Of a stretch of DNA of 64,000 nucleotides, positions 37,290-41,096 are shown one piece after another (the first letter of the stretch is position 1; the number at the start of each line of letters is the position of its first letter). The notes under the pieces are model-generated. The model worked only from the letters and a program-made list of their open reading frames with translations. It was not told where the DNA came from and searched no databases. Source of the DNA: Gemmatimonadota bacterium (lineage in GTDB: Bacteria; Gemmatimonadota; Gemmatimonadetes; Palauibacterales; KS3-K002); contig JBDHAL010000001.1 of assembly GCA_039588075.1 (NCBI GenBank), positions 7,027 through 71,026 of the forward strand, written 5' to 3'. Made by a program: the position numbers and the translations under genes.

Positions 37290-40200
37290 CTAATGAAAAT
37301 CGTGGCTATCAACGGCATCGGCGCCGGCCCGGGGCTCGATGGCCTCGATGCGCCGGGCCTGGATGTTGATCACGCCCTGCTCGTTCTGGGCGATTCCCTC
37401 GATGAGCAGGACCGGCGAACGAACGATGGTCTTGCGGTAGCGGTGGAACAGGTCTTCGTAAACCACGAAGTTCGAGAACCCGGTCTCGTCTTCCAGCGTG
37501 ATGAAGCAGACCCCCTTCGCGGTGCCGGGGCGTTGCCGGCAGATCACCACGCCCGCCACCTTCACCCGCTGCCCGCTTCGTACACCTTTCAAACCCTCCG
37601 CCGATAGCACTCCATGGGCATCGAGCGTCGCACGCAGGTGCTCCATAGGATGACCGTGCGTGCAAAGCCCGGTGGTCATGTAATCGGCGGCGACCAGTTC
37701 GATCCGCTCCATCTCCTTGAGCTTCGGCCGCCGCTCCGACTCCACCTTCGCAAGCGGGCGCTGTGCCAGCCGGGCGAGCACCTCCCAAAGTGCGGAGCGC
37801 CGGCCCGGCCATAGCGTGTTGAAGGCACCCGCCTCGGCGAGCGTCTTGAGCGCCGGCAACCCGAGCCCCGAACGCCGCACCACGTCCTCCACTGACCGGA
37901 ATGGTCCCCCAGCCTCCCACGCCGAATTCAACTTCTCCTCCGCCTTCGACCCCAGCCCGCGCACATAACGCAGGCCGATCCGCAGCGCGGGAGCGCCTGT
38001 GAACCCTAATTCAGAATTCTTGCCGCGAGCTCCAGGGATGGGGCGGGGGTCGTCGAGCGGACCCCCGCCCCATCCCGCCCCACCACCGCGCTCCAACGTG
38101 CAATCCCAGTTAGAGCTGGCGAGGTCGACCGGCCGCACCTCTACTCCGTGTCGGCGCGCGTCGTGGACCAGGGTACCCGACGCGTAGAAACCCATCGGCT
38201 GGGAGTTCAACAACCCGCCGAAGAACTCGGGCGCGTAGTAGCACTTGAGATAGGCAGACGCGTAAACGAGCAGCGCAAACGATGCTGAATGGCTCTCCGG
38301 GAAACCGTAGTTGGCGAAGGCGGTCAGCTGTTTGACGATCTGTTCCTGCACCTCCGGGGTGACGCCGCGCTCGCTCATGCCGCTGCGCAGCGCCGGCTCG
38401 ATCAGCGCCATCGCCTCACGCGATCGCTTGAACCCCATCGCCCGGCGCAACGCGTCCGCCTGTCCGGGTGTGAACCCTGCTAGCGCCACCGCCACCTTCA
38501 TCCCCTGCTCCTGGAAGAGTGGCACGCCCAGCGTTCGGTGAAGGATCGGTTCCAGGTCCGGATGCAAATACGTCACCGGCTCTTCGCCGCGCCGGCGGCG
38601 CACGTAGGGATGCACCATGTCGCCCTGGATGGGACCCGGTCGGATGAGCGCTACCTGTACCACCAGGTCGTAGAAATTCTCCGGCTTCAGGCGCGGCAAC
38701 GAGTTCATCTGCGCGCGGCTCTCGATCTGGAAGACGCCCACCGTGTCCGCCGCCTGGATCATCCGATAAACCTCCGGATCGCTCGCCGGTAACTGCGCGA
38801 GATCTATCGTCACGCCGCGCGTCTCGCGGATGTAGCGGATCGTCTTCGCCAGGCAGGTCAGCATCCCCAGACCCAAGAGGTCGATCTTGATCAGCCCGAC
38901 GAAATCGAGATCGTCCTTGTCCCACTGGATGACCGTGCGGTCGGGCATCGCCGCCGGTTCGATGGGGGCGACCCGGGAGAGCGGGCGTTCGGTGAGCACG
39001 AAACCGCCCACGTGAATCGAACGGTGGCGCGGCAGTTCATCGAGCCCGCGCACCACGTGCACCAACGCCCGCACGCGGCGGTCCCTGGGATCGAGACCGC
39101 AAGCGGCGAGGCCGCCGCTCTCCAGAGCATCCGCGGCATCCGCCGCCTCGAGTCGCTCGACCTCCGATGCCAGCAGGTCGGCCACATCGGTGGAGAAGCC
39201 GAGGACCCGCGCGGCGTCGCGGACGGCCGAACGCCCCCGATAGGTGATCGTCTCGCACACCATCGCCGCGTGCTCGCGACCGTACTTGCGATAGACGTAC
39301 TGGAGCACTTCCTCGCGCCGCTCGTGCTCGATGTCCAGGTCGATATCCGGCGCGCTGCCGCGCTCCTCCGACAGGAAGCGCTCGAACAACAACTCGAACT
39401 TGATCGGATCCACCGCCGTGATCCCCAGGCAGTAACAGACGCACGAATTCGCCGCCGAGCCACGGCCCTGCAGCAGGATCCCCTGCCGCCGTGCGAACCG
39501 CACCACGTCCCAAACCGTCAGGAAATATCCCCCAAGGTCGAGACGCCCGATCACCTCGAGCTCGTGCCGTATTTGACGACGCACTTGGGCGGTCGGGCGC
39601 GGCGGGGATCCTCGTTTTGGTTTCCGTGGCGGGTCGGGCGCGACGGGAGGCCCTCGCTCCATGTCGCGCGATGGGGGGCAGAGAGGCGAGCCGGGCCGGG
39701 GCGCTCCAAATATCCGCTCGTGGCCCCCCGTCGCGCCCTCCCCCTCCGGTAGCTGGAGGGGGTCCCGCCGTGCCCTCCTATTCGCGGTAATAACTTTGAA
39801 CTTGCAGTTATTACCGCGGCTACAGGGATGGGGCGGGGGTCGTCGAGCGTAATTTGGAGCGCGCTTGCCCGTCCCGCCTACTTGCCCGTCCGGCGCGACA
39901 TGAAGCGAGATGACTCCCGTCCCATCCCGCCCCCCCACCGCGACTCCCGCCCCATCCCGCCCACCTCCGTAACGTTCCAGCGCACCCTTCCAGACGAGCG
40001 ACTCGAGGAATTCCTGCCGCGTCAGGCCCGGGGGCACCTGGAACCCCGGCATCTCCGGCGAAAGGTCCACGAGCCGGAAAGGACACTCGGCCGCCAGGAC
40101 GAGCGTGTTCTCCACCACGTCCGGTCGATGGCGCCAGCGCCGCCATACGACCGACGGCGGCTTCAGGTACCACTCTCCGTTGGGACGCAGGCGGGTCCCC

Positions 40201-41096
40201 GCCTCGTCCAGCGTCACCTGGTGTCGCAAGCACGTCAGCACATCGTGCACGATCCGGCCCGATGGCGTCGCGTAGTGCACGTCGTTCGTCGCCACCGCCC
40301 GCAGCCCCCGCCGGTCCGCAAGCTCCAGAAGGCGATCCGCCAACTCTCGCTCCTCCGGCAGCGCGTGATCCCACACCTCCACCGCCACGTACCCCTCTAA
40401 GGCGCTCCGCAAATAATCGAGCAGTTCCCGCGCCCCCTTCCCGTCACCCGCCCTCACCCGCCGCGCCAGTTCGCCCTGCGGACAGCCCGTCAGCGCCAGC
40501 AGCCCCGAACCCCGCTCCGCCAGATCCTCCCAGCTCACACGCGGCCGACCCCGCCCCGGCGCCCATTCCCGACGCGCCGGCTCGGGCGCCGCACCCGTAC
40601 CGCAATATCTAGAGATGGGGCGGGGGTCGTCGAGCGATTCAAGCGCTGCGTCTGGGAGGGCATCACCCCCTTCAGCCCGTCCGGCGCGACATCGAGCGAG
40701 AGGGTCCCCGCCGCGCCCGACCGCCGACCGCGACATCGACCGAGATGACCCCCGCCCCAGCGTTACCAACTCCGCCAGGTTGCCGTACCCCTCCGCCGTC
40801 CGCGCCAGCAGAGTGAGATGGCTGGGCAGGCATCCGGCCTCCGCCGGCTCGAGAGTTACCTCCAAACCCACGATCGCCTCGACGCCGGCCTCTCGCGTCG
40901 CCCGGCTGAACCGCACGATCCCACCCAGGTCGTCGTGATCCGTCAGCGCCAGCGTCTCGATGCCGAGCTCCACCGCCTGTCGAACCAGGACTTCCGGCGT
41001 GGAGGCGCCGTCTAGGAGGGAGAAAGCGGAGTGGCAGTGAAGCTCGGCATAATTGAACATCGGTACCCGAAGAAACCCCGTAAGCCCTGGCGACAA
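37290..41096 (-). CDS. dnaE2: error-prone DNA polymerase III alpha paralog DnaE2 (ImuC), with three in-frame repeat insertions
   Basis: PHP N-terminus (YAELHCHSAFSLLDGAS), Pol III alpha core, HhH and OB regions. The 1268 aa compare with about 1050-1100 for DnaE2; the excess is explained by three repeat-derived insertions. Confidence 0.85.
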   Translation of the reverse strand: MSPGLTGFLRVPMFNYAELHCHSAFSLLDGASTPEVLVRQAVELGIETLALTDHDDLGGIVRFSRATREAGVEAIVGLEVTLEPAEAGCLPSHLTLLARTAEGYGNLAELVTLGRGSSRSMSRSAVGRGGDPLARCRAGRAEGGDALPDAALESLDDPRPISRYCGTGAAPEPARREWAPGRGRPRVSWEDLAERGSGLLALTGCPQGELARRVRAGDGKGARELLDYLRSALEGYVAVEVWDHALPEERELADRLLELADRRGLRAVATNDVHYATPSGRIVHDVLTCLRHQVTLDEAGTRLRPNGEWYLKPPSVVWRRWRHRPDVVENTLVLAAECPFRLVDLSPEMPGFQVPPGLTRQEFLESLVWKGALERYGGGRDGAGVAVGGRDGTGVISLHVAPDGQVGGTGKRAPNYARRPPPHPCSRGNNCKFKVITANRRARRDPLQLPEGEGATGGHERIFGAPRPGSPLCPPSRDMERGPPVAPDPPRKPKRGSPPRPTAQVRRQIRHELEVIGRLDLGGYFLTVWDVVRFARRQGILLQGRGSAANSCVCYCLGITAVDPIKFELLFERFLSEERGSAPDIDLDIEHERREEVLQYVYRKYGREHAAMVCETITYRGRSAVRDAARVLGFSTDVADLLASEVERLEAADAADALESGGLAACGLDPRDRRVRALVHVVRGLDELPRHRSIHVGGFVLTERPLSRVAPIEPAAMPDRTVIQWDKDDLDFVGLIKIDLLGLGMLTCLAKTIRYIRETRGVTIDLAQLPASDPEVYRMIQAADTVGVFQIESRAQMNSLPRLKPENFYDLVVQVALIRPGPIQGDMVHPYVRRRRGEEPVTYLHPDLEPILHRTLGVPLFQEQGMKVAVALAGFTPGQADALRRAMGFKRSREAMALIEPALRSGMSERGVTPEVQEQIVKQLTAFANYGFPESHSASFALLVYASAYLKCYYAPEFFGGLLNSQPMGFYASGTLVHDARRHGVEVRPVDLASSNWDCTLERGGGAGWGGGPLDDPRPIPGARGKNSELGFTGAPALRIGLRYVRGLGSKAEEKLNSAWEAGGPFRSVEDVVRRSGLGLPALKTLAEAGAFNTLWPGRRSALWEVLARLAQRPLAKVESERRPKLKEMERIELVAADYMTTGLCTHGHPMEHLRATLDAHGVLSAEGLKGVRSGQRVKVAGVVICRQRPGTAKGVCFITLEDETGFSNFVVYEDLFHRYRKTIVRSPVLLIEGIAQNEQGVINIQARRIEAIEPRAGADAVDSHDFH
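38010..38110. repeat. GC-rich hairpin repeat inserted in-frame in dnaE2 (insertion 3, about 27 extra aa: ERGGGAGWGGGPLDDPRPIPGARGKNSELGFTG)
   Basis: The palindrome GGGATGGGGCGGGGGTcgtcgagcggACCCCCGCCCCATCCC at 38034-38079 sits between the conserved DnaE2 blocks CTLE and ALRIGL. Confidence 0.6.
39575..39965. repeat. composite GC-rich repeat cluster inserted in-frame in dnaE2 (insertion 2, about 130 extra aa)
   Basis: Contains the hairpin CGCGGTAATAACTttgaacttgcAGTTATTACCGCG, the GGGATGGGGCGGGGGTCGTCGAGCG unit, the TTGCCCGTCCGGCGCGACATGAAGCGAGA unit and a GGGCGCTCCAAATATCCGCTCG unit. The conserved DnaE2 sequence resumes at QIRHELEVIGRL. Confidence 0.6.
40553..40775. repeat. composite GC-rich repeat cluster inserted in-frame in dnaE2 (insertion 1, about 75 extra aa: GRGSSRSMSRSAVGRGGDPLARCRAGRAEGG...)
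   Basis: Contains the units AGATGGGGCGGGGGTCGTCGAGCG and CCCGTCCGGCGCGACATCGAGCGAGAGGGTCCCCGCCGCGCCCGACCGCC. It sits between the PHP domain and the block PRVSWEDLAERGSGLLALTGC. Confidence 0.6.

Follow-up and report, generated by a model that had tools for sequence, protein, structure and literature searches.

The dnaE2 gene at 37290..41096 (minus strand) of the 64-kb stretch of Gemmatimonadota DNA analysed here (the window) carries three in-frame segments that match a family of hairpin repeats otherwise found between genes. We suggest, with a probability that we would put at roughly 0.7, that these normally extragenic repeats have repeatedly colonised three permissive, disordered loops of a working DnaE2. 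The repeat units are elements of the DNA and not modules of protein, as a core common to them is translated, across alleles, in every one of the six combinations of orientation and frame. They would have entered dnaE2, or been copied into it, by transposition or recombination, perhaps moving as single-stranded hairpins, a route suggested by compensatory changes in their stems and by an excess of G.U over A.C pairs of about four to one. Only events that preserved the frame and added no stop codon have survived, and the inserts would then be translated straight through as loops rich in Gly, Pro, Arg and Ala, leaving the PHP, palm, fingers, helix-hairpin-helix (HhH) and OB regions intact. Further insertions, in-frame deletions and duplications have afterwards altered the content of the loops quickly while purifying selection acted on the core. 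Most likely the protein tolerates the inserts as passengers and they do not serve as functional domains, and we infer that they are neutral.

The open reading frame (ORF) runs for 1268 amino acids from a TTG codon and has its only stop codon at the end, giving an intact dnaE2; the true start is probably the ATG at 41060 (M13) and not the TTG at 41096, judging from the N-terminus 'M-x-S-Y-A-E-L-H-C-H-S' of its relatives. The NCBIfam model for error-prone DNA polymerase (NF004225, profile length 1047) matches the ORF in three stretches with 1254 bits against a cut-off of 939, and the DnaE1 model PRK05673 reaches 723 bits, which is under its own cut-off of 1002. All five Pfam domains were found, in the order PHP, DNA_pol3_alpha, finger, HHH_6 and OB. 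The polymerase blocks PDIDLD (aa 583), QGRGSAANS, ESRAQMN, IRPGP and YGFPESH are intact, and they are invariant in alignments of 24-72 sequences; PDIDLD we take to be the catalytic acidic palm motif of Pol III alpha.

Judged by the names that its homologues bear, the window belongs to Gemmatimonadota. To place the inserts we aligned 23 relatives and defined the boundaries as the surplus over the five shortest aligned Gemmatimonadota orthologues, which are 1047-1068 amino acids long, 62-78% identical and free of these segments. The surplus comes to about 214 codons, or 17% of the length of DnaE2, and repeat sequence covers essentially all of it. The initial annotation, made from the window's sequence, had called this DnaE2 oversized at 1268 residues and had proposed three in-frame repeat insertions of about 75, about 130 and about 27 residues. 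The length was borne out, the insertions were recovered by ortholog alignment, BLAST, nhmmer and a covariance model alike, and the proposed coordinates and sizes lie near the measured 62, 118 and 34 residues (Table 1). One unit and a partial second module make up insert 1. Insert 2 takes the form of an inverted doublet, and its site lacks the native loop 'RRNGDPIRV', which six aligned relatives retain. Insert 3 holds a 'solo hairpin' unit with an internal deletion and matches the unit arms at about 90% (BLAST).

That the segments are elements of DNA shows in the way in which they are read. Translation of the core motif CGCGACATNNAGCGAG within DnaE2 gives SRSMSR (aa 118), LARCRA (aa 133) and LHVAP (aa 398), and SRDMERG (aa 476) where the motif lies on the opposite strand. 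This agrees with the earlier suggestion that a single unit is read in different frames, for which LARCRA, LHVAP, SRSMSR and SRDMERG all stand; the peptide 'SRSMSRRTG' that had been quoted in its favour comes from an overlapping out-of-frame ORF (40672..41148) and does not belong to DnaE2. The GC content of the inserts at codon positions 1, 2 and 3 is 0.77/0.68/0.67, without the coding signature, whereas that of the core is 0.71/0.46/0.83, the coding signature of a high-GC genome. As codon-position GC differs in this way between inserts and core, the inserts appear to be of non-coding origin. Their peptides contain 18% Gly, 14.5% Pro, 13.6% Arg and 11% Ala, a composition typical of translated GC-rich non-coding DNA, and the junction-spanning peptides predicted from the ORF include ...GDPLARCR..., ...ISLHVAPDGQ... 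and ...PLDDPRPIPGAR.... It had also been pointed out that each insertion is a multiple of three nucleotides and free of stop codons. This is true and unremarkable, since both properties follow from the intact ORF.

As had been proposed as a check, we mapped the inserts on a Pol III alpha structure, that of Thermus aquaticus (2hpi), where all three fall in alignment gaps: residues 113/123 in a PHP-domain loop, 323/383 at the PHP-palm junction, and 880/887 between the fingers and the HhH. We modelled aa 13-1212 with AlphaFold2 from a 72-sequence alignment; the predicted template modelling score (pTM) was 0.73, and Foldseek matched the model to 2hpi at E 1e-53, with the highest target-normalised TM score, 0.84, for 2hnh. 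In this model the predicted local distance difference test (pLDDT) score falls below 50, without secondary structure, at model residues 107-166, 368-483 and 994-1017, which are the three inserts, and it is 88-98 in the helices and strands that flank them. The inserts are thus predicted to be disordered surface loops between confidently folded elements. Together with the low dN/dS of the core against five relatives, given below, the model favours the suggestion in the initial annotation that DnaE2 tolerates large surface insertions.

Table 1. Positions of the DnaE2 inserts and of the repeat units inside and outside dnaE2, in window coordinates or in those of the locus named
Feature	Position (strand)	DnaE2 residues	Score	Remarks
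Insert 1	40557-40742 (-)	aa 119-180, 62 aa		gap relative to the short orthologues; PHP-domain loop
Insert 2	39609-39962 (-)	aa 379-496, 118 aa		PHP-palm junction; inverted doublet of two units plus spacer hairpin
Insert 3	37989-38090 (-)	aa ~1003-1036, 34 aa (~20 repeat-derived)		tip of the beta-hairpin between WDCTLE and ALRIGL, where fingers and HhH meet
Unit U5, forming insert 1	40595..40738 (+)		covariance model R1 66.8 bits, E 1e-13; nhmmer E 5e-26	full unit; antisense reading ...GDPLARCRAGRAEGG...LDDPRPI...
Partial 'core B + right arm' module (GCGACATCGACCGAGATGACCCCCGCCCC)	40730..40765 (+)			read as SRSMSRS, in a frame different from that of the adjoining unit
Left unit of the insert-2 doublet	39616..39755 (-)		covariance model 111.8 bits, E 4e-24	read as ...HERIFGAPRPGS...SRDMERGPPVAP...
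Spacer hairpin CGCGGTAATAACTTTGAACTTGCAGTTATTACCGCG	39783..39818			AT-richer; apex of the doublet; read as GNNCKFKVITAN; also in the intergenic doublet, ~37128-37165
Right unit of the insert-2 doublet	39809..39948 (+)		covariance model 113.3 bits, E 2e-24	antisense reading ...GRDGTGVISLHVAPDGQVGGTGKRAPNYA...
Insert-3 unit	38018-38096 (+)		covariance model 34.4 bits	
Insert-3 stem GGGATGGGGCGGGGGTC / GACCCCCGCCCCATCCC	38035..38076			perfect 17-bp stem, 8-nt loop
Extragenic inverted doublet directly 3' of dnaE2	36998..37295			units 36998-37138 (-) and 37156-37295 (+) with a spacer hairpin between; reverse-complement counterpart of insert 2
Extragenic unit	32018..32154 (+)			between two convergent ORFs, overlapping the 3' ends of both
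Extragenic solo-hairpin derivative	51077..51140 (+)		covariance model	
Second subfamily, dnaE2 loops	L123 10310-10522, 12954-13064; L042 2245-2461; L096 1566-1676			
Second subfamily, outside dnaE2	L039 4362-4470; L041 102-138			

The repeat unit is a palindrome of 120-140 nt with arms of 13-17 bp, and it often occurs as inverted doublets. Units in the window were located with an nhmmer profile built from seven copies and later with the covariance model R1, which together gave eight copies: four inside dnaE2, two in the doublet downstream of it and two elsewhere outside genes. By BLAST, the intergenic sequence at 37001-37283, 3' of dnaE2, matches the reverse complement 39945-39627 of insert 2 (74.7%, 324 nt, E 1e-55), and 37220-37289 matches 40663-40732 of insert 1 at 87% identity. 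The claim that the flanking intergenic DNA holds the same repeat family therefore stands on the downstream side, where the doublet lies; the upstream flank holds a different family. The inserts are also strongly structured as RNA, for insert 2 forms a single hairpin some 330 nt long (-228 kcal/mol, z = -8.3), and the region 38010-38100, around insert 3, folds at -54 kcal/mol (z = -3.6).

Stem pairing was analysed in 50 units, from the window and 27 other loci. When these units are aligned, two blocks are invariant, GAGCGGACATTTGGAGCGC and CGCGACATGAAGCGAG, with a variable hairpin between them and a 13-bp stem enclosing them, and the sequence of this stem varies from copy to copy yet stays complementary. 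Pairing was found in 93.8% of the stem cells, against 73% when the partners were shuffled and about 48% when the 3' partner was slid out of register. Cells in which both bases had changed numbered 133, against 30 in shuffled stems and 14-31 with the 3' partner slid; such double changes were seen in all 13 stem pairs, and none of 500 shuffles reached the observed values. The copies are related by descent, and the slid-partner control, which keeps that relatedness, still falls far short of what was observed. Pairs in the stem included 42 G.U and 10 A.C, an excess that suggests a constraint acting on one strand. Rfam returned no match, neither for the whole window at the gathering threshold nor for 36900-41500 at E <=1. 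With its covarying stem and invariant internal loops, the repeat is a candidate new structured element.

Beyond the window, a pattern scan of 185,579 species genomes returned at least 119 stretches, of which about 31 contain genuine units among the matches listed. With one exception these come from Gemmatimonadota metagenome-assembled genomes (MAGs), the exception being the weakest match (E 1e-4), in a Solirubrobacterales MAG. Three of the 31 unit-bearing loci are dnaE2 loci, and in the other 28 all copies are confined to short gaps between genes, which often converge on the gap. Copies in five loci appeared at first sight to be intragenic and were rejected: translation placed those of L057 (mutS2), L092 (a tricorn-like protease) and L028 upstream of the real start codons, and those of L082 and L014 lie at most about 155 nt from one end of a stop-to-stop ORF and were likewise judged extragenic. 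Inverted (-)/(+) pairs of units also occur in L047, L092, L103, L125 and L126. In an all-against-all BLAST of the ORFs in 8-kb windows around the units of the 28 loci, with the neighbours not scanned against Pfam, no gene that might mobilise the units recurred beside them except through ordinary synteny.

Two observations concern the extragenic copies in the window. The unit at 32018-32154 overlaps the ends of the ORFs 31066-32064(+) and 32084-33571(-), and it may supply their last codons or their stops. All four singleton units of the window lie on the plus strand, and the two minus-strand units are both doublet partners. The numbers are small, and the skew may reflect a bias of strand or replication direction, as for elements that transpose as single-stranded DNA.

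Comparison with sister alleles, which had also been proposed as a check, showed that the presence of inserts varies and that they occupy the same three loops. We compared 13 alleles at the DNA level (the window, L001-L003, L042, L096, L103 and L123-L128). The inserts differ from one allele to another and some alleles have none, and all 13 reading frames are open despite these differences. Across the alleles the core motif is found in all six orientation and frame classes, read as LASCRA, SLHVAP, SRSMSR, SRDMKRG, ARHEARG and ATRSDAT. Five of these classes occur at site 2 and five at site 3, a spread that would imply repeated independent events, and site 1 shows one, which is consistent with a single old insertion. 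At 90-98% identity, alleles are separated by clean in-frame indels (96, 66 and 123 nt), and one 66-nt indel is flanked by a direct repeat, GGAC (4 nt), such a repeat being absent from the other junctions. In the 'empty' site-1 allele 24 nt of a unit arm are still left, which makes it a deletion derivative and not a pre-insertion site. Taken together, the alleles indicate that loop content turns over fast while the core stays conserved.

The in-frame state of the inserts calls for no special property of the repeat. The mean number of open frames, out of six, is 3.93 for near-full-length units in dnaE2 (n=14) and 4.12 for those outside genes (n=33), so that stop-free frames as an adaptation to life within a gene can be ruled out, extragenic and intragenic units being equally open. 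A random insertion would survive in frame about one time in five, because one third of lengths and about two thirds of frames are suitable, and selection against broken alleles is enough to explain what is seen.

A second, related subfamily of the repeat, with stem GGAGGCGAAGGACCAC and core CTCGCTTCGGGCTCGCGCC, fills site 1 of dnaE2 in L123 and L042 and site 3 in L123 and L096, and it has copies outside dnaE2 as well (Table 1). More than one family has therefore colonised the loops of dnaE2.

Several points weigh against the colonisation of permissive loops by passenger repeats. Tolerance alone leaves it without explanation that dnaE2 is the sole gene hit. Apart from the single GGAC repeat, the comparison of filled and 'empty' alleles identified no target-site duplication, and neither a donor nor a mobilising enzyme was identified. 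A hairpin of some 330 nt and -228 kcal/mol in the mRNA could have regulatory effects that lie outside a passenger model. That the inserts are translated at all is a conclusion that we draw from the frame constraint, and the window and all its relatives appear to be metagenome assemblies.

The first of these points leads to the most serious alternative, namely that repeat and dnaE2 are linked functionally or mechanistically, either because the gene is a preferred landing site or because the inserts are selected, for instance as very stable hairpins or doublets that throttle or condition expression or as loops that alter DnaE2 activity. Seven dnaE2 loci were fetched by protein identity with 10-kb flanks each, 165 kb in total, and all 13 units that nhmmer found in them lie inside dnaE2, which makes up 15% of this DNA (binomial P = 2.5e-11); with the covariance model the count is 14 of 14. 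Among the matches listed, not one of the other copies, about 33 in number, is truly intragenic, so that no gene other than dnaE2 is hit internally. The presence of at least two repeat subfamilies in the same loops, the repeated independent events implied by the five orientation and frame classes at sites 2 and 3, and the exceptional stability of the insert RNA also speak for a link. The same bias towards dnaE2 and repair genes has been seen in unrelated phyla, and Di Nocera et al. speculated on altered activity or expression for repair genes tagged in this way (PMC3733652). However, the inserts occur in both orientations and all frames, so that they yield no conserved RNA or protein product; alleles P0014/L002 and P0019 have few inserts or none and an equally constrained core; and insert content is lost by deletion. 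We consider such a link unlikely, and its more specific form, that dnaE2 is the specifically targeted or selectively retained host of an undescribed structured hairpin element with cores GAGCGGACATTTGGAGCGC and CGCGACATGAAGCGAG in the internal loop of a covarying stem, seems to us somewhat less likely again. If a functional association did exist, the hairpins could, for example, serve to gate the mutagenic polymerase's expression, or this enzyme could help in cis to copy the elements. The preference of palindromic repeats for dnaE2 and repair genes, a puzzle since 2013, would then have a mechanistic answer.

It is also conceivable that the inserts are removed before or during protein synthesis, as an intein, as an intron or by translational bypass, and one could imagine that hairpins as stable as these promote bypass or RNA processing. 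We consider this very improbable. An intein can be ruled out, Pfam having found no Hint, intein or homing-endonuclease domain, and so can a self-splicing intron or ribozyme, there being no match to such a family in Rfam at E <=1. Moreover, freedom from stops and preservation of frame would be needless if the inserts were excised, yet they are universal in the 13 alleles when about one third of unit frames carry stops; the indels are exact multiples of three, and both orientations are present.

Since the window and its relatives appear to be metagenome-assembled and repeats are a known source of misassembly, the inserts might be artefacts of the contig. This we find hard to credit, for independent projects give inserts at the same three loops, including two assemblies in which dnaE2 lies on single chromosomes of 3.0 and 4.8 Mb (CP070823.1, CP070812.1), and random misjoins would not keep the frame throughout or provide each copy with its own compensated stem.

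The initial annotation had left room for a decaying gene held open only by its high GC content. Those organisms in which DnaE2 has been investigated can do without it, and with an insert GC of 0.69-0.73 a single insert would be free of stops with a probability of 0.08-0.51. For random sequence of the same composition, however, the probability of remaining open over 1268 codons is about 4e-14. By the Nei-Gojobori method over 1016 shared core codons, dN/dS is 0.10-0.13 between the window and five relatives and 0.10-0.19 across all 15 pairs, and it is 0.097 for two insert-bearing alleles at dS 0.30. We reject decay because of these low values, the strong GC signature of the core at third codon positions, the invariant polymerase motifs and the improbability of so long an open frame; that all 13 alleles are open points the same way. 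A pseudogene is thus scarcely tenable, and the gene has the appearance of a functional one under purifying selection. That the segments are native, lineage-specific DnaE2 sequence can be practically dismissed: loops of variable length occupy the three positions even in distant DnaE2, but the same DNA lies outside genes both here in the window and at about 28 other loci among the matches listed, it is read in six frames without coding composition, and it is absent from the five short orthologues.

If, as we prefer to think, hairpin repeats have colonised loops of a working DnaE2, the system has partial counterparts among known repeats. Rickettsia palindromic elements (RPEs), reportedly described by Ogata and colleagues in 2000, are said to be palindromes of about 100-150 nt that lie in frame in genes which stay functional, with encoded peptides thought to be located at the protein surface. 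They reportedly decorate many unrelated genes of AT-rich, obligately intracellular Alphaproteobacteria. The initial annotation had drawn this analogy, and it holds in so far as a palindromic repeat lies in frame in a gene that stays functional. It fails on the spread over many unrelated genes, deep intragenic copies being found only in dnaE2 among the matches listed; the host here has about 65-70% GC, and no sequence relation is expected. REPINs, reportedly described by Bertels and Rainey in 2011, are said to be inverted doublets forming long hairpins with compensatory changes and to be dispersed mainly as extragenic copies. To our knowledge they have not been noted for in-frame insertion into one particular gene. 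The present repeat shares with the REPIN/RAYT (REP-associated tyrosine transposase) system its inverted doublets, its compensated hairpin and its mainly extragenic, dispersed copies, but unit size and sequence differ, and ORF BLAST of the neighbours in 8-kb windows, without a Pfam scan, found no RAYT or other transposase beside the units.

Miniature inverted-repeat transposable elements, or MITEs, are small and non-autonomous, with terminal inverted repeats and lengths of 50-500 nt, and can extend or interrupt ORFs in frame; bacterial examples in coding sequence include the QMITEs of Coxiella (PMC5896051; reviewed in PMC10969869). The arms and the size of our unit fit this description. However, its stems differ between copies and remain complementary, which is atypical of MITE ends bound by a transposase, and direct repeats are limited to the one at the 66-nt indel; no parent insertion sequence was identified, none having been searched for.

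The closest precedent is the work of Di Nocera, De Gregorio and Rocco (2013, BMC Genomics 14:522, PMC3733652), who found GTAG- and CGTC-tagged repetitive extragenic palindromes (REPs) inside ORFs of several species, including DnaE2 and genes of replication and repair. In-frame REPs in dnaE2 were reported at aa 166-246 of Swit_1119 in Sphingomonas wittichii (a grouped cluster, 81 aa) and at aa 934-971 of Oter_4053 in Opitutus terrae (38 aa). Repair genes were the only REP-tagged ORFs in many species, a gene bias that was left unexplained; REP dimers of opposite orientation were common, and extragenic copies lay mostly at 3' ends and between convergent genes (PMC3733652). The likeness is that of otherwise extragenic palindromes found in frame within dnaE2, and the novelty that the initial annotation had implied for such a finding is overstated, REP clusters in DnaE2 having been published in 2013. 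Those REPs, however, are stem-loops of 20-40 nt that bear a GTAG or CGTC tag, the stems of the CGTC families having 8-9 bp, and come from other bacterial phyla, Gemmatimonadota being absent from the text of the paper (PMC3733652). Here the unit has 120-140 nt, a covarying outer stem of 13-17 bp, two invariant cores and a variable apical hairpin, and there are doublets of about 330 nt, three loops, an addition of 214 aa (17%) and turnover in 13 alleles. Held against the features that define REPs, the repeat departs in size and in its ends, for the unit has no conserved terminal tetranucleotide and CGTC occurs only within the left arm of one subfamily; it agrees in its inverted long-hairpin doublets and its compensated stem. 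Its architecture is unrelated to those of RPEs and REPs.

Among the flanking genes of dnaE2, imuA and imuB, which form the 'mutasome' cassette, were not found, neither in the window nor in several relatives (L001, L003, L123, L124 and L126), though the two may be sited at another place in the genome. The downstream genes are unrelated, and the upstream neighbours form a divergent trio (41464-43990), conserved in the same five relatives, of an ORF of about 200 aa for a membrane protein, an HTH_34/HTH_5 regulator and DUF4153. Directly upstream of dnaE2, before the divergent 204-aa ORF, lies a hairpin at 41254-41438 (RNA fold -114 kcal/mol, z = -11) that belongs to a second, unrelated palindromic family with further copies at 14156-14362 and 45424-45610; each is a near-perfect hairpin some 185 nt long, GCAATTTCGAACACCGCACACCGAACACCGCC being an example of an arm. 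The upstream hairpin was considered as a conserved regulatory element of dnaE2 and rejected on account of its different family and because none of the 128 fetched loci contains its exact core. A third hairpin family, made from CGACAACGACAACGA...GAGAAACGAGAA motifs, occurs in both orientations at 8977-9114, 21842-21937, 56731-56790 and 58031-58159. Short tandem repeats of the GGTAACC/GGTGACC type lie at 12266-12350 and 51042-51073, the second run adjoining the unit at 51077-51140. A CTC/TTC trinucleotide run of about 230 nt (34738-34968) would, if it is coding on the minus strand, give an acidic poly-Glu/Lys tract. Two pairs of direct repeats, 21009-21308 with 22791-23090 and 48595-48802 with 49874-50081, are 200-300 nt long, 69-71% identical and 1.3-1.8 kb apart, and are probably tandem paralogous genes.

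The presence of REPs in dnaE2 was thus already on record in 2013, and the Gemmatimonadota case, for which we found no precedent specific to this phylum in the literature, adds a phylum, an element architecture, an insert load and a view of turnover. It shows that a polymerase under purifying selection has room for foreign, non-coding sequence amounting to 17% of its length, in three loops, one of which takes a 330-nt doublet that forms a perfect hairpin. The 13 alleles, with their six frames and clean gains and losses, provide a natural series in which to ask why such repeats favour repair genes. Inserts of this kind also inflate gene lengths, and they can mislead annotation and the placing of domain boundaries in high-GC MAGs.

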